From Halovivax gelatinilyticus (GTDB taxonomy: Archaea > Halobacteriota > Halobacteria > Halobacteriales > Natrialbaceae), in NCBI RefSeq assembly GCF_024300625.1, contig NZ_CP101322.1, positions 43,992 to 75,991 on the forward strand: a DNA stretch of 32,000 nt, read 5' to 3'. Made by a program: the position numbers and the translations under genes. Below the pieces are notes generated by a model. That model had not been told where the DNA came from, searched no databases, and saw nothing but the letters and a program-made list of their open reading frames with translations. Below are positions 1 to 26,483 of this stretch, one piece after another (within the stretch, counting starts at the first letter, position 1; each line of letters begins with the position of its first letter).

Positions 1-2727
1 ACGTCGCTTCTCGAGGTTGGTATCGATATTCCTGCCATCAAGGTCATCAGCCAATACCGAGCGCCCTGGGAGATGTCCCAGTTCGTTCAGCGCATCGGAC
101 GCGCATCCCGTAAGGAAGGGAACGATGCTCACTTCTTAATCACACTCGGTGACGAAGCCGCTGACAGAAGTCTCTTCCACCGTGCAGGGAGCTTCCTAGA
201 TCCGGAGATTACTACACCACTCAATACTGACAATGAGATTCTGACCTGGATTCACAGTCAGCTCTACAAGGCTTTTCAAACTGTCTATCGGATTAGGAGT
301 GCAGTGACCACCGGTGGGTCGACTCAGCAACAAGAAAAATTCCTCGAGTACTTTCTCCGTCGGTCGGATGAAGAGTCGTTCCAAGCTTTCGGCCAGTTTA
401 TCGAGGAGCCCGGTACAGAACTCACTAGTCTTCTCGAACAGCGGCTCCCGATATCAGGGTCGTTGAACGACCTCGAGACGATCGATGCTGTCTACAGCAC
501 AGTGCTACAGGCGGTCCAAGACGATGCACTCCTGACCGATATCGCGACCCTCCTTGACGAACCGGTCACACGGTTCACACTCCAGACGGGAAGGCTCGAT
601 GATCTAGACGACCAGATGGAGATAGGTATCCGGATGACCATCCAGGAAGTTAGGAACACAATTAACCAAGCTGAACCGCAAAATACTGCCGCCAGGGGCG
701 CTGTCGATGCAATTTCAAATCAACTATCTGAGGCCGAAACTATTCTAGATGACGGGGGTCAAGACAGACGAGACCGATACGATGACTTAGATGAGCTCTT
801 CAACAATGTCCGAAACCAACTAAGCTCGGTGGCATCTGATTTTACGGGCGTTCACGAGTCATTCCCCTATCATCTACGTCTTGAAGACGCAAACAGCGCA
901 ATCCAGGAGGCTCGCGGAATTCGACGTGATGAACAACTCCAGGATAAACGCCAGAGATGGCGGCGCGCGTACTACGTCAAACGGGCACTACAGGAGTACT
1001 ATTGCTTCGTGAATCAGCGTTTCAGTGATAATCAGGTGTATGGGCACCTGATGGTGCGAGCGTTTAAAGCTCTCTTACGAGCAGTGTACTTCTACGACCG
1101 GGCAGTGAACCTCGAATCAACACGTGGAGAACTTGAACCCCCTCACTTTGTGCCGACATCGTATTTCGGTGAAGCCGGCGAGACGTTCTCGGTAGTGCCT
1201 GAAGATCAGGCAGGGGCCCCTGGTGAGGAAGATTCTATAGATGCACTGTATGTCATTCGATTTGAACAAAATGACGACGACGAAGAACAGTTGGATGCGT
1301 CGCTAACCAAACTCTTCTTCGAGTACGCGCCGTATATGTCGAAGTACCTTTCTGACCAGTCACTCCAAATGTTCAATCCGCAGGTAGAGGAAGCCCCAGT
1401 CGACGCCGACGCCGACTACTACTTCGACATCTCCGGATTGAGCACGGAGCCAGGAGAAGACTTGGTCACGCCGAATACCCTGCCCGTGAAACAAGTCGAG
1501 GATCAGTCCGGCGACCAGGCACGCGCGATTGTTTGGTACTGCAATGAATCCCTCTACGTTGGCCGCAATCGGTGGGACCACGGACCACACGGAGAGGATA
1601 CCATGGACTACGGTCAGCTCCACTCAGAGCCGCATATCGGCACGGCGTTCGAACCCGAAGAGAGACCCACTGACCAAATCAGTGTATCGTATATCGATGC
1701 TGACGTGAGTCTCGACGCAGTAACACTGACAATCACGCCGGCAACGCTCGTAGGCGACCCTTCTGCAGAGAGTCCTCCCTTCCGCACCGAACGAGACGCG
1801 CAGCGCGAATTACTGCTGGAGTTCGAGCAACCGCTTGGTTTTTCGCTTCACTCCCGAGGCGTCATCTGGGATATCGGGGATTTCGTTGACGAACTCCTCG
1901 AGGATGAGGAATTCGTAGAAAATTTTGAAAGCCACAATCCAGGGGCCGACATCGAAGATACCATCCATTTTACGGCTGCTCACTTCCTCGTAGAGGTCGT
2001 TGCGGACGTCAGTGGGGTCAACCAGGCACAGATGCTCTACGCCGTCTCTCCAGATGCGAATCAAGTGGCAGTGTTCGAGCATGCTGAAGGGGGACAAGGT
2101 ATCGTTGATCTCTTTGACGACGTACGTAATCGTCTCGAGCACGAGAAGATGCTGCGAACTATTAACCGGGTCGCGTCGAATCCGCAGTTGATCAACGGCT
2201 CGCTCTGGGCCGACAATGAGTTTGTCGTCGCCGTTCGTGCCGGGGACTGGGCGACCGTCGAAGAATTCGTCCGTCAGCGAGTGGTCGTACCGACCGAGTC
2301 CGTGGTCAATGACGTGATGCAAATGGTCCAGAATACGGTCGACCAACTGGACGAATTCGCTGATGTCACTGATACAACGCTGGAGGAAGCCTACGAAATT
2401 CGCCACGCTGCGGCCCGATATCAGTTCGAGGTTGGGATCCACGACCCAGTCGAGGACCTCGAAGACGAAACACCAGACAGCGTTCAAGCGGAGAACCTCC
2501 GGAATCTCATCGTCGAACCCGACGTAGACGACTGTGTTGAAAACTTACATCTCGCATATAGCATCGTCATGGACCAGGGGAATGTCCTCAGCTATCTCGT
2601 CCTCGAGCGGCTTCACGAGCACGTCGTAACAAAGACCGACAGCGACGACTGGGGGGACGAAGTACTGGACCGCGAGGCAATTCCTGGAGTGAATATTGAT
2701 GGTACAAACGTTTTCCATACGCTCTGA
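1..2727 (+). CDS. SF2 (DEAD/DEAH-type) helicase, C-terminal part only (5' end lies upstream of the window), with a DUF1998/MZB-like C-terminal domain
   Basis: Frame +1 is open from nt 1, with no stop before the ATG at 73. It reads TSLLEVGIDIPAIKVISQYRAPWEMSQFVQRIGRASR, which is helicase motifs V-VI (QRIGRAsR at 88-111). HFTAAHFLVEV...VAVFEHAEGGQGIVDLF (1966-2115) matches my memory of the DUF1998 signature (H-T/S-x-x-H ... D/E-x-x-x-GG-x-G). The protein is long and very acidic. Confidence 0.75.
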   Translation, partial: TSLLEVGIDIPAIKVISQYRAPWEMSQFVQRIGRASRKEGNDAHFLITLGDEAADRSLFHRAGSFLDPEITTPLNTDNEILTWIHSQLYKAFQTVYRIRSAVTTGGSTQQQEKFLEYFLRRSDEESFQAFGQFIEEPGTELTSLLEQRLPISGSLNDLETIDAVYSTVLQAVQDDALLTDIATLLDEPVTRFTLQTGRLDDLDDQMEIGIRMTIQEVRNTINQAEPQNTAARGAVDAISNQLSEAETILDDGGQDRRDRYDDLDELFNNVRNQLSSVASDFTGVHESFPYHLRLEDANSAIQEARGIRRDEQLQDKRQRWRRAYYVKRALQEYYCFVNQRFSDNQVYGHLMVRAFKALLRAVYFYDRAVNLESTRGELEPPHFVPTSYFGEAGETFSVVPEDQAGAPGEEDSIDALYVIRFEQNDDDEEQLDASLTKLFFEYAPYMSKYLSDQSLQMFNPQVEEAPVDADADYYFDISGLSTEPGEDLVTPNTLPVKQVEDQSGDQARAIVWYCNESLYVGRNRWDHGPHGEDTMDYGQLHSEPHIGTAFEPEERPTDQISVSYIDADVSLDAVTLTITPATLVGDPSAESPPFRTERDAQRELLLEFEQPLGFSLHSRGVIWDIGDFVDELLEDEEFVENFESHNPGADIEDTIHFTAAHFLVEVVADVSGVNQAQMLYAVSPDANQVAVFEHAEGGQGIVDLFDDVRNRLEHEKMLRTINRVASNPQLINGSLWADNEFVVAVRAGDWATVEEFVRQRVVVPTESVVNDVMQMVQNTVDQLDEFADVTDTTLEEAYEIRHAAARYQFEVGIHDPVEDLEDETPDSVQAENLRNLIVEPDVDDCVENLHLAYSIVMDQGNVLSYLVLERLHEHVVTKTDSDDWGDEVLDREAIPGVNIDGTNVFHTL

Positions 2728-3163
2728 CCAAATCGCCCGATATCTCGGATCGGCGTTTCTCAACGCGACCCGGATAGTCATCGTCTCACCCTGGGTGAGC
2801 GATATCAAGGTCAAGGTCCCAGAGACGGACCAAATTGACGACCGAGAGTTACTGCTCTCTCAAGCGGTGAACCAGTTCGACGTTAACGTGACATTCGTCG
2901 TTGACCCTGCTAATAATGCCCACAACCGGTTACGGGCACAAGCCCTCCTCCCTAAAGTTAGTAGCCATGCGACGATCGAGACTGTAGATAACCTTCATGC
3001 GAAAGCTATTGTCACGGACCAAATTCTCTATCAGGGTTCAGCCAACGTGACCTACCACGGTCTGAATGTCAACGTCGAATTATGTGATCTTCGAGAAAAC
3101 GAATACGAGGACGCAAACGACTTCTTGCGGGAACGAATCGGGCTCGAACTTGGCGAGTCCTAA
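2696..3163 (+). CDS. Phospholipase-D-family (single HKD) nuclease, Nuc/DrmC-like
   Basis: NLHAKAIVTDQILYQGSANVTYHG is a complete H-x-K-x4-D-x6-G-S-x-N motif at 2996-3046. There is one HKD copy in about 155 aa, as in dimeric PLD nucleases. The ORF overlaps the upstream helicase ORF by 32 nt, so the true start may be slightly downstream. Confidence 0.85.
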   Translation: MMVQTFSIRSDQIARYLGSAFLNATRIVIVSPWVSDIKVKVPETDQIDDRELLLSQAVNQFDVNVTFVVDPANNAHNRLRAQALLPKVSSHATIETVDNLHAKAIVTDQILYQGSANVTYHGLNVNVELCDLRENEYEDANDFLRERIGLELGES

Positions 3164-5204: not shown

Positions 5205-5323
5205 GGACTCTACACATAATCATCATTCAATATAAATAATACCAGTGTATCAGGGATCTGTTGTGTTCTGGATTTGTTGTTAGAATCAGTCCTTTCTGGG
5301 ATTATTAGGTTCCGAGGCTCACG

Positions 5324-12535: not shown

Positions 12536-14542
12536 TTATTGGGTGTCCACCGGACTGGTCGCACGGTCGTCCAGGTAGTCCAATAATTCTTGAATGTTGT
12601 CATTCCTGAAAAACTCGGTGAGCTGTAATGCCTGGGGAGATTCAGGAAATACCACTCCTTGACCGTATTCGTCAAACGCGTCCTCGATAACTCGCCTGTA
12701 CGTTTTGCTCGTCACGTAACCAATAATCTCGTCGAATTGATCGCCGTAGCGTTCGAGGTACTGTGAGACGCGACCGGTGACCAATTCGATCTGATCGGTG
12801 TCCTCTTTCGCGAGAACGTAATCATACTCCAATATTGGCTGTTCTCGCTCGAACTCTTCGGGCACGGGTCCGTACATTCCCGAAATTGTAACTTTATGTA
12901 CGGCTTCGCTCAGAGACCCAAGTTTATCGAACAAGATTGAATGAGTCCGCGAACGCGAGTAGGGCTTTTGCTGGCTGCACGGGACAAATAGAAGGATGTC
13001 TTTCTCCCTAGGAGGCTCGTACGATTGGGTGCTAACGTTGAAATCGTTCGGACTATGTTTGAGCGAGATTTGACGCGTGCCAACGGATTCGTCGATTCCG
13101 GCACCCCACTTGGAGAGCTTCGACTGATCGCTCGCCAACGTTGAACCTGGGAGGAGATCGTACGCGCCACGGGACTCGAGTACGTTTTTAAGTCGTTTGT
13201 TTCGAAGTTGAGCCTGCTTGAGCCCGCGCTTGATGTCATCGTGTTCTCTTGCAAACTCAACAACGTACTCTAGCAGTCGTCCCTCTCGAATAGCCCCGCG
13301 GACGCGTCCGAGTTCCTCATTGTACACTTCGAAGTTGTGCCGAGCAAGGAGCGCATAGTAATCACTTTTGATATTTTTCCCGTTCTCTTTTCTACGCTGT
13401 CGTTGCTCGTAGCTCAGATCGGTGTTGAGTTCTTTGACCAACCGGTCATAACTCACACCCCCATCTGAACACAGGAGACAATTCGGGAGATCGCACGGAT
13501 AACTTCTGTCCGGTCCTAGGTACTGATCTAGATCAGATAGTTTATGAGTCGTCCATGTCTCAGGATGGAGATACTTTTTATACTGTGCAGTATGCATGTG
13601 GGTTGAACAGTCAAACGTATCGACACCAAGAAGGGAGAGCAGGCCAACCTGTTTTCCACCCACACCGAAAACGTGGAGGCCGATTTCGTCCGAACGGGCT
13701 TCCGGAATAGCGTCTTTTGCTCCCTGAACGATATCCACCAATACATCGATACTATCTCGAAGCGGAACGAGCGATCCTACGGCAAATCCTTGGAACGAAC
13801 TGTCGATATCGAGTTTGTCGACACGATCGAGAAAGTTCCCAACGTACCAATTGACCGTTTCGTAATCGTGTCCGTGAAGCGCGACATATACGCTCGGCTC
13901 GTCACCAGCCGCCTGCCGCTCTCGCAAGTGATCCGCTGCGCGGCTGTTGATCGGGAACTCATCGTCGAGGAGATTTGGTTTATCGAGAAGGCGGAGACAT
14001 TCCACTGCGCTATCTATACTCCGATTCATCCGCTCAACTTTCTCTTCTTCTTTAAGATTCGGTGGAATTGGATAATCGAGGGTCGCAACTATGTCGGCCC
14101 CAAAGTCGAGCTGTAGACCGAGTATGCTTTTTGGGTCCGTGTAAAGTCCCCACTCGTTTGGGACACCGCCCTTCTCTGGAGCCTCGCCAAATGTGTTGGA
14201 ATTCATCAGCTTGAAACCGCCAGAATCGATGAAGATGGGGGCGTCGAGACGGTTGAAGCGCTCGTGAAATGTCTTTGGTCTCCAAAAGTCATTCAGATTG
14301 TTCGGAGATACGCCGTAGTCGGTGAAGCTCATCGCCTGAAACATTATCCCTTGAAGATGCTCCTTGTCGATGAGCTTATCCCGCATTCGACGCCAGACAC
14401 CGCCGGACTTCTCAGTAGTACCGCCGATAAGATTGACGACCGGGAACAATGCAGGCGTCTCTACGGGGCCGTGCGTCACATCTAATTCCCCTAGGCGGCC
14501 AAAACCGTCATCACCCACCGTCTTCACCCGAAAGGACGCCAT
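12536..14542 (-). CDS. TGT-family paralog with a C-terminal ArcS-type (PC-x3-KPY) domain; ArcS-like but without a recognisable PUA domain
   Basis: N-terminal TGT core: ETPALFPVVN, IFIDSGGF, ALHGHDY, FAVGSLVP, LHVFGVGG..LGVDTFDCSTH. The zinc site is an unusual C-x4-C-x2-C (CDLPNCLLC, 13469-13495). At 12941-12982 the C-terminal domain reads PCSQQKPYSRSRTH, which is PC-x3-KPY-x2-S-x2-H, followed by VTISGMYGPVPEEFE..PILEYDY (12818-12892). Confidence 0.85.
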   Translation of the reverse strand: MASFRVKTVGDDGFGRLGELDVTHGPVETPALFPVVNLIGGTTEKSGGVWRRMRDKLIDKEHLQGIMFQAMSFTDYGVSPNNLNDFWRPKTFHERFNRLDAPIFIDSGGFKLMNSNTFGEAPEKGGVPNEWGLYTDPKSILGLQLDFGADIVATLDYPIPPNLKEEEKVERMNRSIDSAVECLRLLDKPNLLDDEFPINSRAADHLRERQAAGDEPSVYVALHGHDYETVNWYVGNFLDRVDKLDIDSSFQGFAVGSLVPLRDSIDVLVDIVQGAKDAIPEARSDEIGLHVFGVGGKQVGLLSLLGVDTFDCSTHMHTAQYKKYLHPETWTTHKLSDLDQYLGPDRSYPCDLPNCLLCSDGGVSYDRLVKELNTDLSYEQRQRRKENGKNIKSDYYALLARHNFEVYNEELGRVRGAIREGRLLEYVVEFAREHDDIKRGLKQAQLRNKRLKNVLESRGAYDLLPGSTLASDQSKLSKWGAGIDESVGTRQISLKHSPNDFNVSTQSYEPPREKDILLFVPCSQQKPYSRSRTHSILFDKLGSLSEAVHKVTISGMYGPVPEEFEREQPILEYDYVLAKEDTDQIELVTGRVSQYLERYGDQFDEIIGYVTSKTYRRVIEDAFDEYGQGVVFPESPQALQLTEFFRNDNIQELLDYLDDRATSPVDTQ

Positions 14543-14607: not shown

Positions 14608-15093
14608 CTAATCAGGATCCGTCACCGATTGGATTTGATCTGATATCTGGACAGTTGTGTACTCTGCGGCCTCAGTCCAGGAACTCTGCCATTCGTTTCC
14701 TTGTTTCGGCGGCTCCAGCGGAAATTCTACTGGATGATACGAGAGGTCGTCAATAGCCCCCGCTGCGATGGCTCCGACGAACTCCGCATTTTTCCGTTTC
14801 GATGAAACACCACCGCTAGCCAAGTCATAATAATTTGTGAATATTTGTGCGACGAGTACGATATCTACGTCAGTTCTTTCGTTGGTAAGATGACGGAAAA
14901 TCTTCGCAGAATTGTCGGCAGGATCAGCTCGCCTCCACTCCAATTCCAAGAGCACGAGCAGTTTGTCGTTTTCTCCACCGATGTCTACCGGTGTTCCGGC
15001 TAGATCATATTCAGTCTGCCATGACAAGCTAGTATTCGATTCACTGAGTCGGTTGTATATGTACGTCTGTACCTTCGAAGCAAATTCACCCAT
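14608..15093 (-). CDS. Small hypothetical protein, possible PD-(D/E)xK (restriction-endonuclease-like) fold
   Basis: The ORF sits between the GHKL ATPase and the ArcS-like gene. TPVDIGGENDKLLVLLELEWRR has the hydrophobic-D ... hydrophobic-E-x-E/K spacing of REase folds, without a clean K. The ATG at 15093 lies 5 nt after the upstream stop. The track's TTG at 15102 would overlap that stop. Confidence 0.5.
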   Translation of the reverse strand: MGEFASKVQTYIYNRLSESNTSLSWQTEYDLAGTPVDIGGENDKLLVLLELEWRRADPADNSAKIFRHLTNERTDVDIVLVAQIFTNYYDLASGGVSSKRKNAEFVGAIAAGAIDDLSYHPVEFPLEPPKQGNEWQSSWTEAAEYTTVQISDQIQSVTDPD

Positions 15094-15098
15094 GTCGA

Positions 15099-16664
15099 TC
15101 AATCGTCGGCGACGGCTCGCGGTGACATTGGTTCAATGTGGTGGCTGAGTGGCAATATCTCGACATAGGTAGGGTTCTCATCCCCGTAAAGTAGGCCGTT
15201 TTCCTCTAGATCAATCTCGATGTCTTCGCCGAGATACCCTTGCCGTTCGTATTCTCGTAACACCACCGGGTCCCCGTGATCCCAGCAAATTATGAGATCT
15301 ACTTCCTCGAACGTCAGCTCCTCATTGAAGTGATTTGTCAATGAACAGTGAACAGCCGCATTGCGAAGTTTCCCGTTCTGACGTGCAATCGCGTGTACGT
15401 CCGAATCCGGCTCGTAATCTTCGACAGAAATCTGTCCTGGTAAGGTATTCTCGTTCTCCCGTGCGAGCGTGAGTAGGACCTCAGTTCGATTCGATGGCTC
15501 ACCGGAGTCCCCCGATTCCACGCGCTCTCGTCGGAGCTTGAGTGAGGCACGGCGGTTCCGAGCTCGGCGTTTAATCTCCGCTTCTCGTCGGATTTCAAGA
15601 TATTCTTTGAACCACGGATCTTGTGCCACTTTCGATAGATGAAATTCGGTCGCTTCTTTGAGCGCCTGGAACACAGGGCTCGATTTATTTCGAATCGTTT
15701 CACGATTGGCTGATAATTCGATATCTTGGCAGTTCACAACAAAGAAGAAGTGAAGGAATTCATTGTCATGAGAGATTGCCTCGTTCAGCCGTTCAACCTT
15801 GATGTGATCCTTTGCAAGCCAGACACCGAACTGTGCGGAATGCTTTCCATAGGTAGGAAGCTCGTTTCGAGCGGCTTTCCCACCGACCATTCCAGTGATG
15901 TGGAGCGTCGTCGTGCCACCATCGTAATCGGCTTCGACCTCTGTCGGTCCGTAGTGTTTACACATTCGCTCGGCAGGGAAATCTGACGAGTAATCGGGCT
16001 CAAGTTGTTCGTTCGGGAACTCAAGTCGGTTCTTCGTCTCAACTTCCGGATATGAATCGTCTATTTCGTCACCAAGACGAACAGTGATGTCCATTTCGTG
16101 CTGATCGTCCTCGAACATGTGTGCCGTCGAGCCGGCGATAGTTTTCCACTTTAGATAATGTTCGATCTTATTATAAGTGAGTGATTCCGGATCGAATCCC
16201 TGACCGGATCGGAAATTGTGGATTCTGATCCTCGTTCCCTTGTGAAGATTGCTTACAGGTGTTTCAGTGACTTCGTACTCAGGAAGTACCCGGTTGTTAA
16301 GTTTTTTCCAAGGGTCACTCATCACCGCCCGGAGGTTGGTGCCATCATGGACGGTATTGACGACGATCTCATCGCTTTTGTAGAATATTTTCGTCCCATG
16401 ACCTTTGTACCCTATCGAATCCGTCTTGCGCGAATTCCCCAAATCGAAAAAGGATTCGAGGTCACGGAGGTCCATGCCGTCTCCATCGTCATCGATGATG
16501 ATGTCAGAGCCCATCTCTCGACTTTTAATCTCGATTTCAATATTTGAAGCATTTGCATCGTACGAGTTCGATAGCGATTCCCGGATTACCTCAAGCGGGT
16601 CCTCGAAGTCGCTCGCAATTTCGAGGAACTCGTTCACTTCGTTGACCTTTGGAGCTTTTTTCAT
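15099..16664 (-). CDS. GHKL (Bergerat-fold) ATPase, HATPase_c_3 / prokaryotic MORC-like
   Basis: IRESLSNSYDANAS is the N-box E-x3-N-x2-D-A, DDDGDGMD is D-x-G-x-G (both within 16476-16580), and GYKGHGTK is the G2 box. There is a basic coiled segment (REAEIKRRARNRRASLKLRRER). An ATGA overlap with the upstream TGT gene at 16661-16664 was checked. Confidence 0.85.
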   Translation of the reverse strand: MKKAPKVNEVNEFLEIASDFEDPLEVIRESLSNSYDANASNIEIEIKSREMGSDIIIDDDGDGMDLRDLESFFDLGNSRKTDSIGYKGHGTKIFYKSDEIVVNTVHDGTNLRAVMSDPWKKLNNRVLPEYEVTETPVSNLHKGTRIRIHNFRSGQGFDPESLTYNKIEHYLKWKTIAGSTAHMFEDDQHEMDITVRLGDEIDDSYPEVETKNRLEFPNEQLEPDYSSDFPAERMCKHYGPTEVEADYDGGTTTLHITGMVGGKAARNELPTYGKHSAQFGVWLAKDHIKVERLNEAISHDNEFLHFFFVVNCQDIELSANRETIRNKSSPVFQALKEATEFHLSKVAQDPWFKEYLEIRREAEIKRRARNRRASLKLRRERVESGDSGEPSNRTEVLLTLARENENTLPGQISVEDYEPDSDVHAIARQNGKLRNAAVHCSLTNHFNEELTFEEVDLIICWDHGDPVVLREYERQGYLGEDIEIDLEENGLLYGDENPTYVEILPLSHHIEPMSPRAVADD

Positions 16665-17908
16665 TGGAAGTACCCCCCGAGCGAGTGGTTAACTACTCGA
16701 TGAGCAGACTCTCGAGTTGGTTTATCTTGTGCAACAGTGCCTTCGATATACTCGACCAACGATGACGAATCACCTGATTTGACCCGTTGGCGAACCTCTT
16801 CGATCTCTCGTTTTTGAATGATTAAGTTGTGCATAGCTACCGGCCCCAACATGTCTTTTTTATATGGAGCATTTCCACGCATCCACCTTCGCATGTGCTG
16901 AGACGAGCATACTGGGCAATCACACTCGTCAAAATTCGCTTCATTAACGTTCACCGTCTCCATAAGTGATAGGAAATATCCACCGTTGATCGCATTTTGC
17001 AAGTACGTCGATGAATCGAAGGTGTCTACGCCAAGCGCAACAAGTAATGGGACGGCTCTGCTGGAAATTCCGAGAACGTGCAACGGTAATTTGTCGAAAC
17101 CCCAATCGTGTAGCACTTCGTGGCAATCGATTACAGCGTCGATTAGGGCCGACCGATTGTCCTTCATTGGTACGAGACTACCAAGGGCAATTCCGTCGAA
17201 AGACGACCGAAGCTTTTCCGCGCTCACATAGTCAGTTATCTCGGTGAGGAAAGCGTCCATCATCGAGTAGTTATATCCGTGTAAAGTGAGGTACCGGGCC
17301 CCGGTATACTCGTCAGACAGGTCAAGAAATATCTCGATGTTTTTTCCCGTTTTTCGGGCTTTTTCGAGCCGTTCCTCGTGAGTATCGGACGGCGTTATCG
17401 GGTGGTCGAGATTGACGATGATATCACCACCCATTCGTTTCTGTATCTCGAATACTTTCGCTTGATCGATATCCTCTTGGAAGTCGCTTCCATCCAGGCT
17501 TTCATTATTTAAGAATTTGAATCCACCAGAGTCTAGGAAGATAACTCCGTTAAAAGGTGAAAACACCTCTCGTTCTTTTATCGGTTCATAGACATAGTCG
17601 GCATATCGTTCTTTTGAGACGTTGTAGTCGGTGAGGGACGAAACGGAGGTCATGACCGCATCAAAGAATTTCGCGTATGCATCATCCCCCCCAATTCGGT
17701 CAGCTCCGATCATAAACTCCTTGACCGTTCGATGGATACCCCCGCCGTAAACACTATTCTCGGTACCGCCACCGTAAAAATTTACGACCGGGAATAGGTT
17801 TGGTGTTTCAATTACCGAGTCACCAATTGTCAGCTTACCAGCACGGGCGTCTCCCACCGTCTCCGAAACCTCAAAATTTGCCGAATAACTTGTCTTTGAA
17901 TATGACAT
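16661..17908 (-). CDS. Stand-alone TGT-family protein, DpdA-like (catalytic core only, no PUA or C-terminal tRNA-binding domains)
   Basis: ETPNLFPVVNFYGG, IFLDSGGF, LTLHGYNY, IALGSLVP, LHVLGISS..LGVDTFDSSTY. The zinc site is canonical: CDCPVC at 16907-16924 (checked) plus VAMHNL. The protein is 415 aa and ends shortly after the Zn subdomain. Confidence 0.85.
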   Translation of the reverse strand: MSYSKTSYSANFEVSETVGDARAGKLTIGDSVIETPNLFPVVNFYGGGTENSVYGGGIHRTVKEFMIGADRIGGDDAYAKFFDAVMTSVSSLTDYNVSKERYADYVYEPIKEREVFSPFNGVIFLDSGGFKFLNNESLDGSDFQEDIDQAKVFEIQKRMGGDIIVNLDHPITPSDTHEERLEKARKTGKNIEIFLDLSDEYTGARYLTLHGYNYSMMDAFLTEITDYVSAEKLRSSFDGIALGSLVPMKDNRSALIDAVIDCHEVLHDWGFDKLPLHVLGISSRAVPLLVALGVDTFDSSTYLQNAINGGYFLSLMETVNVNEANFDECDCPVCSSQHMRRWMRGNAPYKKDMLGPVAMHNLIIQKREIEEVRQRVKSGDSSSLVEYIEGTVAQDKPTRESAHRVVNHSLGGYFQ

Positions 17909-18369
17909 TAGTTAACCTTCCTAATACCCGACTCTTCGCCTTGAAGGAACTGTTTGAGCGAGCGCCCCTTCAAACCGATACCATCTCCCTGTACCAGGTA
18001 TGTCTCAACATCTAGTCCTTCATCAAATCCGTCAATGGCCCTTCGATACTCTTTACCAGCGTTAATGACAACTCGTTTATATTGTTTCTCGGTGACCCGA
18101 TTTTTCAGCTCATTCCTTACTTTTGGTCCGAGCTCTTTTGCCCTGTGAGAGTCCATTCTTCGGTCATACGGAGAGATTGGTTCTTCAGGATCGATGATAC
18201 CGTGTTTCGCAGATAGAATACATAAGTCACAATCAGAATATCCGCCTCCCTCTCCCATCGATTTTTTGATAATTTTGAAGAAGTATCCAGAATACAGTTC
18301 GAGGGCAGAGACGGGTTTATCCGGCTCGATTTTGGACTTCGAGCAAGATTGAACGAGCAGCGTCGACAT
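17908..18369 (-). CDS. Small C-x3-K protein, paralogous to the C-terminal ArcS-type domain of the 668-aa protein (DUF5591/DUF6884-like, tentative)
   Basis: LLVQSCSKSK (18331-18345) aligns with LLFVPCSQQK of the ArcS-like protein. CILSAKHGIIDPEEPISPYD (18163-18219) aligns with VTISGMYGPVPEEFE..PILEYD. A TAATG stop/start overlap joins it to the DpdA-like gene at 17908. Confidence 0.6.
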   Translation of the reverse strand: MSTLLVQSCSKSKIEPDKPVSALELYSGYFFKIIKKSMGEGGGYSDCDLCILSAKHGIIDPEEPISPYDRRMDSHRAKELGPKVRNELKNRVTEKQYKRVVINAGKEYRRAIDGFDEGLDVETYLVQGDGIGLKGRSLKQFLQGEESGIRKVN

Positions 18370-18583: not shown

Positions 18584-19282
18584 TTAATTCATAAAGGACC
18601 TAGGACGTTCACTGTACTCGATTGGATCCCTCGATCCGACGCTTCTGAACGAATCTAGCCGCAACGCACAGGAGTCACAAATCCCACACGCCGGCGCTTC
18701 GTCCCGGTAACACGACCACGTGAGTTCGTACGGAACCTCAAGTTCGAGACCCCGCCCAGCGATTTCCGTCTTCGACCACTCGACGAACGGTGCGACCAGA
18801 TCGATCTCTGTTTCGGGTTTCGTACCGACGTCAACGACCCGCTGGAAGGCGTTAAAGAACTCCGGGCGGCAATCAGGATAGCCTGCGAAATCCTCCGAGT
18901 GCGCACCGATGAACACCGCGGAGCAGTCGTTCGCTTCGGCGTACGAAACAGCCATCGCTAACAGATTCGCGTTCCGGAACGGAACGTACGATGTCGGGAT
19001 TTCGTCGCTCTCAAGGTCCGCATCGGACACCTCAATTTCGTCGTCGGTAAGGCTAGAGGCACCGATTTTCGACAGATGGCTCGTCTCAATGTGCAGAAAG
19101 TCCGCCGCGTTTACTTCCTCTGCCAGCGCTTTCGCGCACTCGTATTCCTTGTTCTCGGTTCGCTGCCCGTACGAGGTATGTAAAAAGTACGGTTGGTAGT
19201 CGCGGTCGATCGCTTCGTAGACCGCGGTCGCACTGTCCATCCCACCTGAAACCAGTATTGCTGCGCGTACGTCGTTACTCAT
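18584..19282 (-). CDS. queC: 7-cyano-7-deazaguanine (preQ0) synthase QueC
   Basis: N-terminal PP-loop ILVSGGMDSATA. C-terminal zinc cysteines WSCYRDEAPACGICDSCALR. Length is 232 aa. Confidence 0.95.
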   Translation of the reverse strand: MSNDVRAAILVSGGMDSATAVYEAIDRDYQPYFLHTSYGQRTENKEYECAKALAEEVNAADFLHIETSHLSKIGASSLTDDEIEVSDADLESDEIPTSYVPFRNANLLAMAVSYAEANDCSAVFIGAHSEDFAGYPDCRPEFFNAFQRVVDVGTKPETEIDLVAPFVEWSKTEIAGRGLELEVPYELTWSCYRDEAPACGICDSCALRLDSFRSVGSRDPIEYSERPRSFMN

Positions 19283-19877
19283 GTGTGTCCACCGCCGAGC
19301 GGAATCGCCACTGTTCGTTTTCGGTCAACTCACCGACTGTAAACTGCGTCGTCGTCTCCGTGGCCGCCTCGACTCCGCGCATTGCTTCGCAGAGGTGCGT
19401 CGCCGCAAGTTCAACCCGTACAGCCTCGGCGTTCACTTCGTTGGCTAACCCTGATGCGATGTCCTGGGTCAGTTTCTCCTGTATCGTCAACCGCCTCGAT
19501 CGCCACCGAACGTAGCGGGCGAGCTTCGAGAGACCGACGACCTCGTCCTTCGGACGATACGCTATGTGAGCAACACCGTGGTACGGTAGCATGTGATGCT
19601 CGCAAAGACTGTACACCGAAATTCCCGTTTTGATCACGAGTTCACCGCTTTCAGCTGCGAAGGTTCGCATCTCGGGTTTCGCCGACTCTCGCTGCCCTTC
19701 TGTGAGTGTCTCGAGAGACGCCGGCATTCGGCGCTGCCAGGTATCCGTCAGTTCTTCGCGGTTAGGATCCTCTCCCAGCGCCTCCAGTAGCATCCGCGTG
19801 GCACGCTGGGCTTTCTGCCAGTCAATGTCGGACGTTTCACTGCTCTCCATGCTCGGTTGCTGGTGCTGTCTTGTCAT
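19275..19877 (-). CDS. folE: GTP cyclohydrolase I, type IA (FolE)
   Basis: SLCEHHMLPYHGVAHIAY and PKDEVVGLSKLARYV are FolE active-site signatures. I place the start at ATG 19877 (ATGA overlap with the queE stop, checked). The track's GTG at 19898 is less likely. Confidence 0.9.
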   Translation of the reverse strand: MTRQHQQPSMESSETSDIDWQKAQRATRMLLEALGEDPNREELTDTWQRRMPASLETLTEGQRESAKPEMRTFAAESGELVIKTGISVYSLCEHHMLPYHGVAHIAYRPKDEVVGLSKLARYVRWRSRRLTIQEKLTQDIASGLANEVNAEAVRVELAATHLCEAMRGVEAATETTTQFTVGELTENEQWRFRSAVDTHE

Positions 19878-21111: not shown

Positions 21112-21286
21112 ACCCAAAGAATATCCCGAGTGCACATAAGCTTATTTGTTGATTTGTTCGTACTGCGGAAACGTCTACAACGAATCATCTTCATCTATCA
21201 GTTCATGACTATTATTTGCCGAGAAAACCGAAAGTTACAGATTGAGTTGGGATATGCCCCAATGAATTGTAGAAAGGTGAGGTCTG

Positions 21287-21682
21287 TTAGAGCACTCGGT
21301 CCGAATAATATGACCCAGTGATTCTAATCTCACTCTCATCGACTACATCTACGATTCTTTTCATTAACTGTGCCAGAGGTTCGGTCTGATTTGTGGACGA
21401 TACTTTCATCGCATGTTCGTCAAAGTTGACGACACCATAATCGTCGAGCATCGGAAGATGGGTATGTTTGAGACCAATGTCCGATGATCGTTGTACAGTC
21501 CGGCCGACTGACTCGGAATCCACATCCGCTTCTTCGGCAGCAACCTGTCTACCCAGGTCTGACACCCGAACGGTCACCGTCTCGCTACCTTCCTCGATTT
21601 GAAGATCTAGGAGTAACTCGAGCACGATTCGACGTCGCTCCGACTGGAGAATACGCAGGATGTCCTTCAGTTCCTTACTCAT
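21287..21682 (-). CDS. Haloarchaeal winged-helix transcription regulator, DUF7344-like
   Basis: ILQSERRRIVLELL ... SDLGRQVAAEE ... LKHTHLPMLDDYGVVNFDE matches the RRR...L-x-H-x-HLP-x-L-x-D-x-G-V pattern of this family, recalled from memory. It is co-directional with queD and lies immediately upstream of it. Confidence 0.65.
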   Translation of the reverse strand: MSKELKDILRILQSERRRIVLELLLDLQIEEGSETVTVRVSDLGRQVAAEEADVDSESVGRTVQRSSDIGLKHTHLPMLDDYGVVNFDEHAMKVSSTNQTEPLAQLMKRIVDVVDESEIRITGSYYSDRVL

Positions 21683-22052: not shown

Positions 22053-25000
22053 ATGGTTGATACCGATGATCGGCCGGCAGTCACACTAAATCCGAGCGGT
22101 CTCGGCCAATACATCAGTTATTCTGGGTGTCCGCGATTTTTCAGACTGAAGTTTTTCGACCACGGCCTCGTGAATAAGCGAAACTGGTACGATCCGAACG
22201 CAGGTAGTGACCTTTTCGCAGAACTTGGGTTAGCCTACGAAGAAGAACAATTGAAAACACTCAGTGAGGATGCATCCCGAGTCATCGGGGACACTGACAG
22301 CGATGGTGATGTGATCCCATATGATGAGACGTGGGAAGACAATACGGGATCACACGGCGACATAGAAACGCAGTGGAAAGGTGGAGTCCGTGAACAGTTG
22401 ATCAATCTGATCGAGACCCTCGCAGATAGCGACCATGACGAGTTGGATGGACCCGTCGTGTTGTTCCAGACACCCATGTTTGGACGGATCGGAGTCTGGG
22501 ACATTGCTGGTATTGCCGATCTCATCACACTGGAACCGCTTCCGGAGAGTCGCGGCGTCCGAACTAGAGTTCTGGAGGTCAAGACGTCCTGGAAGGACAA
22601 GACATCTCAGCAGATTCAATCGACGATCTATAGTTTACTATTAAGCACGGTGGTTTCCGAGTGTGGCGTCGATCATGAACCCGTCGCCACAGTAGTTAAT
22701 CGTGAGGCAGACCTCCGCGAACATCCCCTGCCGGAACTCCCGCCGATCGATCTTCCCTCGCGGACCGCGGAGGTGAAACGCCTGTTGAAACAGGATGGTG
22801 AACTACACCAGTTAGCGCGAAAGTCGTTTGACGAGGTCGGGTATCGCCTCGAACGAAAATGCGACGGGTGCCCGTATAACGGGATTTGTTTCACGAAAGC
22901 AATTGAATCACGCGATCCAGCACTGTTGAACCTCACACAGGGGAATCAGGAACGGCTTCGAGTGCAGGGCATAGACTCGCTCGCGGGGTTGACCGACCTG
23001 TTTGAGCGAGAAGAGGGGACGAAACCGTATGATTACGACGAACTCCCAGTACGTGATGAGACAATCGTTCGTGCCTTAGAGAGTGAGGGAACCCTTTCGA
23101 ATCGCCTCGACGAAATCGTTCAACGGGCTCAGGTACTCCGTGGAGAACTCGATCCGTCGTACGACTCGTTCGGCGGCGTAGAGTACCTACGTGGCAGTGG
23201 GAACGGCAATCTCCCTGACGACGATCCGCATCCACGATTGCCCGGAGGGGCGTGTGAGCGCAACGAACTGATCCGGGTGTACCTGTACGTCCAGCACGAT
23301 CCCGTACGTGACCGGCTGGCGCTCTTGGCTGCTCGCATCAATTGTGACAAGACCGATGCGACGACCGTCGTTGAATTTAGCGAGCAACTCCCAGCGGCGA
23401 AAGACGATAGCCTCGACGCGGAAGCGAAGCTACTGGAAGCGTTTTTCGAACGGCTAATCAAAGCAATCCAGGGCATAAAAGCCGAGTTTGGCTCGAGTCC
23501 AGACCAGGGCTATGTCCATCTGTACACGTATTCCGCCCACGAACGGGACGCACTCATGGAGGGTGTTCAACGACAACCGTCCGTCTTTGGAAGCGCCGCA
23601 GTACGTGATCTTCTGGGACTACGAGAGGGACTCGACCAACCGATGGTGTCGGTCGTGCATAACGATATTACGAGTCGCTTGGCGTTACAATACCCGGGGA
23701 CAGGGCTCATCCAGACAGTCGAGCAAATGCAGGCGTTCGCCGACGAGTCCTATCCTCGACGCTGGTTTTCTGCTACCGATTGGAAAGCGACGATTGCTGG
23801 CGACGAAGTTGACCTTCGGGATGTATTCAGGACTGGGTTGTTCGAGGGGAAGCGAGCGTACGTCGAGGAGGGCAACTCGATCAGATTGCTCCTTGGTGAT
23901 CCAGGCGATCCGGATCGGGAGCCAGATGGCTTCTACCCACTGTACAATCGATTTGGAAATCAGATTCCCCTGGAGTACCTGTGGGCTGCTCGCGGTAAGT
24001 TAGACGATGATGTGGAACTCGGGACGGGCAGTTCGTCGCTCTCAACATATCGGTACTACGACGGGGAGGGCTCCAAACCGATCGGAGCCCCAGAAGTGAA
24101 AGCACTCGCACAGCGACTGACGGAAGCTCTCGAGCACGTCGAACGGGCGATCGCGTACAAGAACTGGCAAATCGATAAGCAACCACTCGATTTGAGCCGA
24201 CTGCCAGCCTTCTCGCTTGAAAATATTGAACTGAACCGTGCCTGCCAAGAGTATCTTGATCTGGAACACACGACGAACTATCGTGACTGTCTCGACCATT
24301 ACCTCAAACCGCCTCGAAAGCGCATGCAGACCGGCGATTCGACGATTTTCCGCGTCACGAACGTCGAACCTGCTGGCCAGTGGGATATCCGCGTCGAGGG
24401 CGATCTTCTCTATGACGAGTTGTTCCGAAATCCGGATCAGGTGATCGATAGTTGCCGGATCAGCGGCTCGGACGACGGCGGCTCCGGAAGCTGGCGAGTA
24501 ATGTCGAAACTCGAGCGCAACGGCAGGGAATTCAGACAAGTCAATGCGACATACCCGCGGTATCTGGCAAATTCGATCAAGGCATCCGTCGAGTCGTTCG
24601 ATCGAACCGGCAAAACGATCACGGTGAGTGCATCGACCCACGGTGGGTTCGGCCGCAGCCGGTACCTTGAGTGGCACCGGAGTGCAACGATGGAACCCGA
24701 GGAAGCCGACGGAGAGGATTACACGACGCTGGTCTCTGAAGGTGACCTCTTTGTGCTTGATCCGTACGCGGATTCTTACCCCGCGCTCAGAGCCTACGAA
24801 GCGCTCGAGCGGACGGAGTCGAACGCGTTGTACCACCAGTTGAACCGCGCGTTCCAGGACGGCGAAACTGAGCAGTTCGACCGGCAGTTTTGTTCGCCGA
24901 CCGCTGTTGCGGACTTCATCGAAACGTTCGAGGATGCGACGGGTGCGCGTCCCCGCGGGAACCAGGCGGAGTTCGTTAAGGAAGTTGACCACAGCGTCTC

Positions 25001-26483
25001 CGTTCTGCAAGGGCCGCCAGGAACCGGCAAGACCAGTTTTACGCTTGCACCGGCGGTGTTAGCTCGACTCGCAGCGAGCGAAGACGAGGGGGATCGGTTA
25101 CTCACGGTTGTGACTGCGCCGTCGCACACTGCTGTTGATGAAGCGATGGAGGACATCGTCACGAACTGGGCCGACCTCACTGAGAGTTCAGCAACCACTG
25201 CGGCAACCGAGTTTGTTCGGGTTCGTGCCGGTTCTTCCACCGATGTCCGTGAGGCCGTCGACGAGCACGTACGGTTTGTCGATTATTACGATACAACTGA
25301 TGTGGTCGAGATGACCGACGCGCTTCGTCCACACGTGACGCCGGACGGTCGGGCGACGAATCATCTCGTCGTGTTCACCACGCCGACATCGCTTCGGGGT
25401 GTGATTAACAAATGCTCGGGTGAGTTATTCGCTCTCGACGACGCTGAAGCGGTGATGGATGCCGGGATTTCGTTCGTCGATTTGCTGGCGATCGACGAGG
25501 CGAGTATGCTCGATCTGCCGGCGACGCTCCTCTCGAGTGCGTTCCTCAAGGACGATGCACAAACGCTCCTCATCGGTGACCACCGGCAAATGGAGCCAGT
25601 TCAACAACACGACTGGGAGGGGGAGGATCGCCGAACCATCGAAGAGAATGTGCCGTTCATGTCGGTGTTGAACTTCGTCCGATTCCTCAGAGGCGACCTT
25701 GAGGAAACCGATTTTGCATTCGCCCAATCACCCGATATCGGTGACGCGATTCCGATCACACGCCTCGACCGAACCTATCGGCTACACACTCGAGTCGCTG
25801 ACTTGCTCACTGACCTGGTGTACACTGACGACGGGATAAAACTCAAATCAAGCCAGACAGCGACGATTGATCACGTTCACGCCGGTACGGACGGCGTTGC
25901 AGCCGCGATGAATCCGCAAGCTCCGGCTGCCCTTGTTATTCATGACGAGGACGAGAGCCAAGACGCTAACCGAACCGAGGTCGCTATTGTAGCCGCGTTG
26001 TTGAGCGCGTTGGATGATCCACAACCAACGGAGACTGGAATTGTGACGCCACACAATGCCCAGAAAGGACGACTCAACCAGCAGTTTAATGGAACCGCAA
26101 CGATCGATACCGTCGAGCGGTTTCAGGGTGGGGAACGCGATGTCATGGTTATCTCGGCCACTGCAAGCGACCCGGACTATGTCCGAAGCGAAGCCGAATT
26201 TCTGTTAAATCCAAACCGATTGAACGTCGCCATGTCCCGAATGAAGAAGAAACTCGTCATCGTTGCAAGCGAATCCGTGTTTGAGGTGACACCACCGAAT
26301 GCCGATGAGTTTGACCAAACGTTGATATGGAAGCGCTTGTACGACGCCCTTGGCGTCACCGACAATAGCCCAGCGACGTCAGTTTGGGAGGGAGATCTTG
26401 GTGAGTTTTGTCCAAGTAACGTTGATATTCCCCGCGGAAAATCCGGCACGAATATCGATGTCTACGCCTTGGAATCGGAGTAA
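22053..26483 (+). CDS. Three-module protein: N-terminal Cas4/RecB-type Fe-S nuclease, central RNase-H-like (TM0106-type) region, C-terminal Upf1/Dna2-like SF1B helicase
   Basis: Nuclease (about 22128-22889): SGCPRFFRLKFF, DIAGIADLITLE, RVLEVKTS, QIQSTIYSLLL (QxxxY), CDGCPYNGIC. Middle: VYLYVQHDP and YVHLYTYSAHERDAL. Helicase: VLQGPPGTGKTSF (from 25011), AIDEASML, IGDHRQMEPV, VERFQGGERDVMVIS, LNVAMSRMKKKLVIV. Confidence 0.85.
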   Translation: MVDTDDRPAVTLNPSGLGQYISYSGCPRFFRLKFFDHGLVNKRNWYDPNAGSDLFAELGLAYEEEQLKTLSEDASRVIGDTDSDGDVIPYDETWEDNTGSHGDIETQWKGGVREQLINLIETLADSDHDELDGPVVLFQTPMFGRIGVWDIAGIADLITLEPLPESRGVRTRVLEVKTSWKDKTSQQIQSTIYSLLLSTVVSECGVDHEPVATVVNREADLREHPLPELPPIDLPSRTAEVKRLLKQDGELHQLARKSFDEVGYRLERKCDGCPYNGICFTKAIESRDPALLNLTQGNQERLRVQGIDSLAGLTDLFEREEGTKPYDYDELPVRDETIVRALESEGTLSNRLDEIVQRAQVLRGELDPSYDSFGGVEYLRGSGNGNLPDDDPHPRLPGGACERNELIRVYLYVQHDPVRDRLALLAARINCDKTDATTVVEFSEQLPAAKDDSLDAEAKLLEAFFERLIKAIQGIKAEFGSSPDQGYVHLYTYSAHERDALMEGVQRQPSVFGSAAVRDLLGLREGLDQPMVSVVHNDITSRLALQYPGTGLIQTVEQMQAFADESYPRRWFSATDWKATIAGDEVDLRDVFRTGLFEGKRAYVEEGNSIRLLLGDPGDPDREPDGFYPLYNRFGNQIPLEYLWAARGKLDDDVELGTGSSSLSTYRYYDGEGSKPIGAPEVKALAQRLTEALEHVERAIAYKNWQIDKQPLDLSRLPAFSLENIELNRACQEYLDLEHTTNYRDCLDHYLKPPRKRMQTGDSTIFRVTNVEPAGQWDIRVEGDLLYDELFRNPDQVIDSCRISGSDDGGSGSWRVMSKLERNGREFRQVNATYPRYLANSIKASVESFDRTGKTITVSASTHGGFGRSRYLEWHRSATMEPEEADGEDYTTLVSEGDLFVLDPYADSYPALRAYEALERTESNALYHQLNRAFQDGETEQFDRQFCSPTAVADFIETFEDATGARPRGNQAEFVKEVDHSVSVLQGPPGTGKTSFTLAPAVLARLAASEDEGDRLLTVVTAPSHTAVDEAMEDIVTNWADLTESSATTAATEFVRVRAGSSTDVREAVDEHVRFVDYYDTTDVVEMTDALRPHVTPDGRATNHLVVFTTPTSLRGVINKCSGELFALDDAEAVMDAGISFVDLLAIDEASMLDLPATLLSSAFLKDDAQTLLIGDHRQMEPVQQHDWEGEDRRTIEENVPFMSVLNFVRFLRGDLEETDFAFAQSPDIGDAIPITRLDRTYRLHTRVADLLTDLVYTDDGIKLKSSQTATIDHVHAGTDGVAAAMNPQAPAALVIHDEDESQDANRTEVAIVAALLSALDDPQPTETGIVTPHNAQKGRLNQQFNGTATIDTVERFQGGERDVMVISATASDPDYVRSEAEFLLNPNRLNVAMSRMKKKLVIVASESVFEVTPPNADEFDQTLIWKRLYDALGVTDNSPATSVWEGDLGEFCPSNVDIPRGKSGTNIDVYALESE

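Follow-up and report, generated by a model that had tools for sequence, protein, structure and literature searches.

This study provides comparative and structural evidence pointing to a counterpart, in haloarchaea, of the Dpd system with which bacteria modify DNA, encoded in a stretch of 32,000 nucleotides of the Halovivax gelatinilyticus chromosome (RefSeq assembly GCF_024300625.1, contig NZ_CP101322.1, positions 43,992 to 75,991), referred to below as the window. The gene in question encodes a 521-amino-acid ATPase of the GHKL superfamily, 100% identical to a database entry, and lies beside the gene of an enzyme of the tRNA-guanine transglycosylase (TGT) family. The reading that we put forward with moderate confidence, drawn wholly from comparative and structural inference, is that the locus is the haloarchaeal Dpd counterpart and that the TGT has in the GHKL protein an obligate ATPase partner, which replaces DpdB non-orthologously. 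The initial annotation of this DNA had offered the replacement of DpdB as one of its suggestions, and the comparative evidence favours it, since genes for DpdC-family, DpdA-like, DpdJ-like and DpdK-like proteins are present and no ParB/DndB-like protein (the DpdB family) was found among the open reading frames (ORFs) of the window or the recurrent neighbour families scanned. The GHKL ATPase occupies the position beside the TGT where DpdB would be.

The bacterial Dpd system places 7-deazaguanines in DNA and restricts DNA that lacks them. Its DpdA inserts preQ0 into DNA only when ATP is hydrolysed by DpdB, an NTPase of ParB type for which a model shows a dimer around the DNA that is gated by nucleotide, and DpdC turns dPreQ0 into dADG independently (PMC10164549). 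In bacterial dpd islands, dpdA-C are syntenic and dpdD-K are variable (bioRxiv 10.1101/2025.02.24.639861). The genes of the window that carry the comparison are the following:

17908..18369, minus strand: DUF6884 protein, 153 amino acids (Pfam DUF6884, 61.5 bits against a cutoff of 30)
16661..17908, minus strand: DpdA-like TGT, 415 amino acids, catalytic domain only (Pfam TGT, 103 bits)
15099..16664, minus strand: GHKL ATPase, 521 amino acids (Pfam HATPase_c_3, 51.7 bits against a cutoff of 25)
14608..15093, minus strand: small protein with a predicted restriction-endonuclease fold, 161 amino acids from ATG (AlphaFold2, Foldseek, D37..E50-x-E52)
12536..14542, minus strand: ArcS-like TGT paralog, 668 amino acids (Pfam TGT and DUF5591)

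The arrangement described in the initial annotation, with the GHKL gene and a small ORF wedged between two TGT paralogs, holds in the window, where the flanking genes are those of the 415-amino-acid TGT and of the 668-amino-acid protein with TGT and DUF5591 domains. The ATG of the GHKL gene (16664-16662) overlaps the TGA (16663-16661) of the 415-amino-acid TGT ORF in an ATGA at 16664-16661, and the GHKL stop codon is at 15101-15099. The small ORF can start at TTG 15102 (164 amino acids) or at ATG 15093 (161 amino acids), 5 nt past the GHKL stop, and the ATG is more plausibly the true start. Its D..E-x-E pattern, likewise pointed out earlier, reads TPVD37..E50-L-E52-W-R-R. Both the GHKL gene and the small ORF are real conserved genes, and chance ORFs are ruled out.

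The comparison was based on 34 related loci, of which 33 were genome loci retrieved with a GHKL profile and one was found by exact-protein lookup; where 35 loci or places are mentioned below, the window is included. These loci come from many genera of Halobacteria and include a Halorubrum plasmid and two metagenome-assembled genomes of Nanohaloarchaeota. The order DUF6884, TGT (~414 amino acids), GHKL on one strand was found in all 34. The junction of the TGT and GHKL genes could be measured in 33 loci. In 32 of them the GHKL start either overlaps the TGT stop, by 1, 4, 8 or 11 nt, or is separated from it by ~9 nt at most, and in the remaining one an in-frame ATG lies 1 nt past the TGT stop. 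A lack of conserved adjacency had been named beforehand as what would speak against a link between the two genes; the survey found the adjacency in 34/34 loci, and the trio also in a Haloprofundus halobius locus reached starting from the TGT. On two further megaplasmids the GHKL gene adjoins the TGT gene, and on one of them, a Haladaptatus plasmid, inspection of the annotation showed the full trio. Pairwise distances of the GHKL and the ~414-amino-acid TGT proteins are correlated with r = 0.95 and rho = 0.86, the highest values of all island gene pairs. No TGT-GHKL fusion protein was found among the listed homologs.

These data bear on the idea that the GHKL gene merely hitch-hikes beside the TGT gene as a defence or selfish element of a single gene, independent of it. 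Bacterial GHKL relatives do stand alone, as this idea would have it, but the position is fixed in 34/34 loci with a start/stop overlap in lineages down to 50% identity, the nuclease motif described below was lost specifically in the TGT-linked clade, and GHKL distances follow TGT distances tightly. We therefore regard hitch-hiking as highly improbable.

Two further occurrences of these genes were recorded. In the two Nanohaloarchaeota genomes the trio stands at ~50% identity and is accompanied by a divergent QueC (33% identity), which suggests that the trio has been exchanged between haloarchaea and DPANN symbionts. A 5.1-kb contig filed under Streptomyces sanglieri encodes, in adjacent genes, proteins (P0034, P0288) with 60-64% identity to the TGT and the GHKL protein of haloarchaea and is most likely haloarchaeal contamination of the assembly.

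The 521-amino-acid protein is a member of the GHKL (Bergerat-fold) ATPase superfamily. Pfam HATPase_c is matched at 30.8 bits (cutoff 26.4) in addition to HATPase_c_3, and all three Bergerat boxes reported in the initial annotation were recovered (E29-x3-N33-x2-D36-A37, D59-x-G61-x-G63 and G85-x-x-G88-x-G90). Full-length homologs number more than 120 at 57% identity or above. The residues E29, N33, D36, D59, G61, G63, G85, G88, G90 and T144 are invariant in 120 of 120 haloarchaeal homologs, which indicates that ATPase activity is under selection, and motifs I-III are kept in at least 76 of 79 distant relatives.

The protein is divided into a Bergerat domain (residues ~1-150), a transducer-like domain (~150-350), a charged helix (350-384) and a C-terminal domain (390-505). 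Foldseek matched the AlphaFold2 model to MORC4, HtpG/Hsp90, SMCHD1, GyrB and MutL with E-values of 3e-9 to 5e-8 over ~300 columns, an extent that supports a Bergerat plus a transducer-like domain without clear preference for MORC. The earlier label of a MORC-type GHKL ATPase thus stands as far as a GHKL protein with a transducer-like domain is concerned, and MORC specifically is one of several candidates, since Hsp90, GyrB and MutL score alike. K285 is invariant, and the alignment to MORC, Hsp90, GyrB and MutL reaches the second domain. The model has a mean predicted local distance difference test score (pLDDT) of 69.6, and residues 271-326, with pLDDT <50, are effectively unmodelled. The most conserved stretch of the whole protein, residues 258-330 (GGK..R..PTYG.HS.QFG.W.AKD.I.VE..N...HDNE..HF.F..N.Q..EL.ANR), has a pLDDT of 32-47 and may be a partner- or DNA-binding surface that folds only in complex.

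The C-terminal domain, which is nuclease-like and degenerate in the haloarchaeal clade, had been missed earlier. It could be placed only via alignment of distant full-length relatives: Pfam searches on 14 C-terminal fragments gave nothing consistent, a PDB profile search with the domain returned noise only, and hhalign against the small-ORF family gave a probability of 0.2. Its predicted topology is alpha-beta-beta-beta-alpha-beta (pLDDT ~80). An exhaustive profile search of the GHKL family yielded 1465 representatives at E < 1e-3, 110 of them at E < 1e-30. Non-haloarchaeal relatives were sampled from Clostridium beijerinckii, Zhaonella, Serpentinicella, Bacteroidia, Leptonema and a Caballeronia plasmid, and those aligned are 23-30% identical to the GHKL protein of the window across the full length. 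Relatives of this kind carry D..E-x-K (or E-x-E) at fixed C-terminal positions (D in 62/79, E in 64/79, K or E in 58/79), with the full triad in 54/79. The same positions in the TGT-linked haloarchaeal clade are H/N, A/S and H in 120/120 proteins, and the triad is found in none of them, which argues against GHKL being the nuclease. Judged from these alignments, the TGT-linked GHKL looks like a former GHKL-nuclease protein that kept its ATPase and DNA-binding scaffold and lost the nuclease chemistry.

Two family assignments of the GHKL protein were tried and rejected. NF050001, the family of the BbrUII/HgiDII restriction enzymes, is matched at 41.7 bits against an equivalog cutoff of 550, and over the N-terminal residues 26-153 only. 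The profile DUF4263/SduA did not match the GHKL protein of the window or eight relatives, and with H/N, A/S and H at its catalytic positions the protein does not qualify as a Shedu type I-D (VcSduA) member.

The bacterial relatives stand alone, without a nearby TGT, in the four contexts inspected (4/4), and have integrases, toxin-antitoxin pairs, an OLD-family nuclease and plasmid anti-restriction genes as neighbours. Those of Clostridium beijerinckii, a metagenome, Zhaonella formicivorans and the Caballeronia plasmid form an uncharacterised stand-alone family of ~550 amino acids in which the GHKL ATPase is followed by a middle domain and, at the C-terminus, by a D..E-x-K domain. PADLOC assigned these stand-alone relatives to no system, and the family is a candidate single-gene defence family of Shedu/paraMORC-like architecture. 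As for haloviruses, no GHKL homolog was found in a phage collection.

The small ORF was described earlier as nuclease-like, and the structural prediction agrees with this. Its AlphaFold2 model (pLDDT 91.3) has an alpha-beta-beta-beta-alpha-beta core, and its best PDB matches are nearly all PD-(D/E)xK proteins (SfsA, R2 restriction-like endonuclease, Can2/Cdn1, Bax1, OkrAI, BglII, HincII, PaqCI, AbaSI, Mus81 and Hjc), with marginal Foldseek E-values of 2e-3 to 0.2. OkrAI is among the best of these (probability 0.95, TM 0.46). D..E-x-E is the catalytic arrangement of BamHI and OkrAI, and D37, E50 and E52 are invariant in 20 of 20 aligned homologs, out of 418 homologs in all. As in BamHI and OkrAI, the D lies on beta2 of this core and the E-x-E on beta3; unlike enzymes of the BamHI/OkrAI/BglII type, the protein has no sequence family match, E-values of at least 2e-3, and 161 amino acids without an obvious DNA-recognition extension. 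By sequence it resembles NucS at E 0.35 only. On the strength of the model, the small ORF product has the PD-(D/E)xK restriction-endonuclease fold and is very likely a nuclease.

A joint effector of GHKL and the small nuclease, as was suggested in the initial annotation, did not hold up in the wider survey. The small ORF adjoins the GHKL gene in 2 of 35 loci (the window and Natrinema mahii) and lies within 10 kb of it, at varying positions, in 10 of 35. The small ORF itself led to 41 metagenomic loci with a length of 8 kb or more, of which 10 contain island genes and 6 the core; with shorter loci included, ~13 of 51 are island-associated, so that about three quarters of the homologs lie elsewhere, and no constant neighbour was found among these 51 metagenomic and genomic loci. 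The small ORF is best seen as a mobile nuclease gene often recruited to islands, that is, as a facultative accessory. Elsewhere, the nearest called gene to a Haloprofundus homolog, at ~1.3 kb, is one for GmrSD type IV restriction, and a Halolamina homolog lies directly downstream of a PAPS_reduct-family gene (L036:8951-10489) in otherwise housekeeping surroundings. A test for paralogy between the small ORF and the window ORF 4734-5204 was negative.

Taken with the family survey, these data allow a different role of the GHKL protein to be weighed, in which it belongs to the restriction arm as an ATP-dependent sensor or clamp for unmodified DNA that recruits or activates nucleases. Such a protein would resemble MORC-like ATPases and the GHKL-nuclease fusions of restriction-modification and Shedu systems. 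VcSduA/paraMORC3 is a proven GHKL-nuclease defence protein (PMC12137116), the nearest non-haloarchaeal relatives of our GHKL protein are stand-alone proteins with D..E-x-K near integrases, toxin-antitoxin genes and OLD-family nucleases, the GHKL N-terminus weakly matches BbrUII/HgiDII and MzaB, and in the window a nuclease-fold ORF begins just past the GHKL stop. This role is nevertheless rather unlikely in our judgement, as GHKL belongs to the invariant core whereas the nuclease and helicase modules are all variable, the nuclease triad of GHKL itself is gone throughout the clade, the small ORF is mostly found elsewhere, and the gene is translationally coupled to the modification enzyme and to no nuclease.

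Concerning the TGT that lies next to GHKL, the 415-amino-acid protein aligned best with the archaeal tRNA enzyme ArcTGT of Pyrococcus horikoshii (1IQ8, E 1e-21) and retains the equivalents of D95 and D249 as well as the C-x-C-x2-C..H zinc site; the catalytic Asp and zinc motifs are present in 34 of 34 orthologs. It ends after the catalytic domain and is without the C1, C2 and PUA domains, with which tRNA is bound. NCBIfam TgtA is matched at 117.6 bits (cutoff 350), and the PADLOC DpdA profile weakly at E 8e-7. Since it falls below the NCBIfam cutoffs for both TgtA and DpdA, it represents a separate TGT subfamily.

The 668-amino-acid paralog has an intact TGT motif set, including the catalytic Asp residues, and a DUF5591 (ArcS C1) domain at 75 bits in Pfam. 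The C1 signature of ArcS, defined as PC-x3-KPY-x2-S-x2-H (PMC10516641), occurs in it as FVPCSQQKPYSRSRTH and is kept in 26 of 30 orthologs. The match to NCBIfam ArcS NF040592 reaches 112.9 bits (cutoff 440), and Pfam detected no PUA domain. A copy of this ArcS-like paralog lies within 10 kb of GHKL in ~30 of 35 loci, with variable position and strand. From their sequences, both paralogs look like active enzymes distinct from the housekeeping tRNA enzymes, and the presence of a dedicated PUA-less ArcS paralog means that the marked base could be of the archaeosine type.

The DUF6884 protein of the window carries the motifs C9SKSK13 (CxxxK) and L52SAKHG (LSAxxG), and the [LI]SAxxG motif is present in 33 of 33 orthologs. 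The family DUF6884 is described as DNA-binding, with a fold like that of YaaA and the motifs CxxxK and LSAxxG (PMC11701544), and DpdC is assigned to this Pfam family (bioRxiv 10.1101/2025.02.24.639861). The window protein, which also gave a weak match to YaaA and one to PADLOC DpdC at E 1.5e-3, belongs to the DpdC family of the Dpd system in this sense.

These features have to be set against the view that the TGT, GHKL and DUF6884 proteins act on RNA (tRNA or other) or on free 7-deazapurines and that the helicase and nuclease genes are unrelated defence neighbours. The resemblance of the TGT to ArcTGT and the ArcS motif of tRNA archaeosine synthesis in the second paralog would suit this view, and all public annotations name these proteins tRNA-guanine transglycosylases. 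On the other hand, both paralogs are far under the NCBIfam TgtA and ArcS cutoffs, the domains C1, C2 and PUA are gone from the 415-amino-acid TGT and PUA is undetected in the 668-amino-acid paralog, the distribution is patchy with plasmid copies and a low GC content of the TGT/GHKL core (0.47-0.51 vs 0.60-0.64 in flanking genes), DpdJ-like and DpdK-like genes recur in 13 loci, and DUF6884, YaaA and DpdC are DNA-binding or DNA-acting proteins. We consider an RNA or small-molecule substrate improbable and DNA the likelier substrate.

The genes around the core were found by clustering the complete set of ORFs from the window and the 34 related loci. In the window, a compact minus-strand operon extends from the DUF7344 gene (21287-21682) through the 668-amino-acid TGT gene, and its other members and the further island genes are as follows:

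21287..21682, minus strand: DUF7344 protein, 131 amino acids, at the head of the operon (Pfam DUF7344, 64.4 bits)
20650-21135, minus strand: QueD (Pfam PTPS)
19874-20665, minus strand: QueE (Pfam Radical_SAM)
19275-19898, minus strand: FolE (Pfam GTP_cyclohydroI)
18584-19282, minus strand: QueC (Pfam QueC)
1..2727, plus strand: DpdJ-like superfamily 2 (SF2) helicase, C-terminal ~908 of ~1360 amino acids, continuing past the left window edge
2696..3163, plus strand: DpdK-like PLD-family nuclease, 155 amino acids (Pfam PLDc_2, PADLOC DpdK)
22053..26483, plus strand: PD-(D/E)xK and superfamily 1 (SF1) helicase protein, 1476 amino acids, MkoA/DpdJ-like (Pfam AAA_11, AAA_12, PDDEXK_1)

The DUF7344 protein may be a regulator. 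QueC, QueD and QueE, sometimes with FolE, are found in about half of the loci, and a Vut_1/YhhQ-type transporter in five. The DpdJ/K-like pair, consisting of a ~1360-amino-acid helicase and a ~150-amino-acid PLD protein, occurs in 13 loci, and the PLD protein is always paired (12-13 loci). The window ORF 1-2727 has no in-frame stop in bases 1-72. A full-length helicase ortholog (L004:1476-5552) matches PADLOC DpdJ at E 1e-50 and Pfam DEAD and Helicase_C, and the DpdK-like protein matches PADLOC DpdK at E 1.7e-15 and Pfam PLDc_2 at 28.2 bits (cutoff 27). The 1476-amino-acid helicase-nuclease matches PADLOC MkoA at 1e-41 and DpdJ at 1e-18, adjoins the core again in three loci (L020, L021 and L038), and may be a component of the restriction arm. 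No match to DpdD, E, G, H or I was detected. With its invariant modification core and variable restriction periphery, the locus has the anatomy of a Dpd island.

Other modules were recorded in the periphery of related loci. One of them (L001, L012, L014, L017, L018, L022, L044 and others) consists of a DruE/DpdJ-like helicase of ~1450 amino acids with DEAD, Helicase_C and MZB domains, accompanied by two unknown proteins (~300 and ~280 amino acids), a STAND NTPase (~970 amino acids) and an unknown protein of ~230 amino acids. Other loci carry a PglZ/phosphodiesterase-like protein of 921 amino acids, a GIY-YIG nuclease, or an HNH_repeat/PadR/HhH protein of 869 amino acids.

In the window itself, an AddA-like protein (UvrD helicase and PDDEXK_1, 1229 amino acids) and an AddB-like protein (1144 amino acids) are encoded at 5324-12444 on the minus strand, directly downstream of the island genes. 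To our knowledge, haloarchaea do not usually have a pair of the AddAB type. The pair was considered as part of the system and set aside: it is missing from 34 of 34 related loci, which places it probably outside the system, and its GC content is 0.60-0.64, compared with 0.47-0.51 in the core. Between the DpdK-like and AddA-like genes lie, both on the minus strand, an ORF of 323 amino acids (3508-4479) with weak matches to the PADLOC candidate PDC-M34B and one of 156 amino acids (4734-5204) with a sub-threshold match to the EVE domain (E 0.024). EVE is a PUA-like fold that can bind modified bases. On the other side of the island, at 27120-31090, a gene for an AAA_14/DUF4143 ATPase (522 amino acids, minus strand) adjoins one for a 718-amino-acid VWA-domain protein, the C-terminus of which is weakly like the restriction-endonuclease domain associated with pPIWI_RE; the two may be another defence-type pair by the island. 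As for signatures of integration, the window contains no tRNA genes and no meaningful direct repeats.

Based on this evidence, a working mechanism can be proposed for the three-gene modification module of the DUF6884 protein (DpdC family), the catalytic-domain-only TGT and the GHKL ATPase. GHKL ATPases are ATP-driven dimerising clamps. In the proposed sequence of events, the Bergerat domains would dimerise on ATP binding, and the dimer, together with the transducer and the dead nuclease-fold C-terminal domain, would clamp and distort duplex DNA at target sites. The TGT, putatively in physical complex with GHKL, would then flip out guanine and swap in preQ0, and ATP hydrolysis would reset the clamp, which would make the base exchange dependent on ATP. 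The DNA-bound preQ0 may be converted by DUF6884 (to dADG) and/or by the ArcS-like paralog (to an archaeosine-type base), and unmodified DNA would be restricted by the variable modules, namely the DpdJ/DpdK-like pair, the helicase-nuclease of SF1 type and, where a genome carries it, the small restriction-endonuclease-fold protein. DpdB and GHKL would belong to two classes of nucleotide-gated dimerising DNA clamps, and GHKL is translationally coupled to the TGT. Non-orthologous displacement is the most economical reading.

Several observations weigh against this reading. The 415-amino-acid TGT is nearer to ArcTGT than to bacterial DpdA, with 27.7 bits for NCBIfam DpdA NF041059 (cutoff 200). The GHKL model is of moderate quality, and the part of the protein that is most conserved is the part left unmodelled. 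Tight synteny and congruent distances are also expected from plain co-inheritance in one operon. The GHKL relatives that stand alone do so in regions resembling mobile elements or defence islands, an ancestry that fits a defence effector or sensor. Finally, a 12-kb metagenomic contig (L041) encodes, at 4047-6145, a DUF6884 protein and, directly after it, a 38%-identical GHKL homolog, with no TGT on the contig, which suggests that a DUF6884-GHKL pair can exist without a TGT; the ATPase may accordingly serve mainly DUF6884, serve both enzymes, or act alone. The contig, which also encodes Orc1/Cdc6, an ASCH protein and many small ORFs, resembles a plasmid or virus.

Among known systems, the bacterial Dpd system (dpdA-K of Salmonella Montevideo; Thiaville 2016, Yuan 2018, Gedara 2023) is similar to the haloarchaeal locus in the TGT-family gene beside DUF6884/DpdC-family and ATPase genes, in the preQ0 synthesis genes and YhhQ-type transporter in or near the island, in the DpdJ-like helicase and DpdK-like PLD nuclease, and in the combination of a syntenic modification core with variable restriction genes on a patchy, horizontally mobile island. 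It differs in that its ATPase is the ParB/DndB-like DpdB, whereas the haloarchaeal ATPase is of the GHKL class and carries a nuclease-fold domain that is catalytically dead. Moreover, the haloarchaeal TGT is ArcTGT-like and below the DpdA equivalog cutoff, the DUF6884 protein has half the length of DpdC (153 vs ~315 amino acids), an extra ArcS-like TGT paralog is present, five of the Dpd proteins named above (DpdD, E, G, H and I) are undetected, and the hosts are archaea.

The replacement of DpdB as an idea exists already: for a BREX-related TGT system, a STAND NTPase was proposed computationally as the substitute (NAR 2026, PMC12839542). That system resembles ours in having a cellular TGT without DpdB, another NTPase proposed for preQ0 insertion, and archaeal representatives, but its NTPase belongs to STAND, a DpdC-family gene is absent, its partners are PglZ, HerA/FtsK and GNAT proteins, and neither GHKL nor the present island is part of the proposal. 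paraMORC3/VcSduA (Shedu type I-D), which consists of a GHKL ATPase, a clamp-like middle domain and a C-terminal PD-(D/E)xK nuclease (PMC12137116), shares with our protein the succession of GHKL, middle and C-terminal nuclease-fold domains in ~520-570 amino acids. The bacterial stand-alone relatives, which retain D..E-x-K, resemble it, while the haloarchaeal protein differs by its lost nuclease residues, its lack of a DUF4263/SduA match and the joining of its gene to a TGT.

Prokaryotic MORC-like GHKL ATPases have reportedly been linked to restriction-modification loci by Iyer, Abhiman and Aravind in 2008. Like the MORC/MutL-like proteins of such loci, the haloarchaeal GHKL has a Bergerat domain of HATPase_c_3 type, then a transducer-like domain, and is encoded in a modification/restriction island. 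Unlike them, it is partnered with a base-exchange enzyme and with no methyltransferase or restriction endonuclease, and the fold search is not MORC-specific.

A GHKL ATPase tied to DpdA or 7-deazaguanines is not described in the searchable literature, which does not prove absence. The large survey of dpd islands required dpdAB and reports bacteria only (bioRxiv 10.1101/2025.02.24.639861). A host 'DpdA homolog' in Haloarcula vallismortis is noted briefly by Hutinet et al. (2019). The dPreQ1 that HVTV-1 and related viruses carry was once explained by invoking a 'DpdA homolog' of the host (PMC6884629), and the present finding has a bearing on the biology of these haloviruses.

In bacterial Dpd, DpdA needs an ATPase for base exchange in duplex DNA (PMC10164549). 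An unrelated and mechanistically well understood GHKL clamp in the place of DpdB would provide an independent handle on the reason for this need and, if the reading is true, a second, independent answer to it. It would also be an example of a defence nuclease turned modification cofactor, and would correct the widespread labels 'tRNA-guanine transglycosylase' and 'ATP-binding protein' on these genes. In its widest form, which we offer only tentatively, the reading is that many haloarchaea and some nanohaloarchaeal symbionts may label the DNA of their chromosomes and plasmids with a 7-deazaguanine, and that a GHKL clamp derived from a nuclease would recognise the sites and open the DNA with ATP for a TGT that consists of the catalytic domain only. 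If true, cellular 7-deazaguanine DNA modification would be extended to the Archaea, as the first such cellular epigenetic system in this domain of life.

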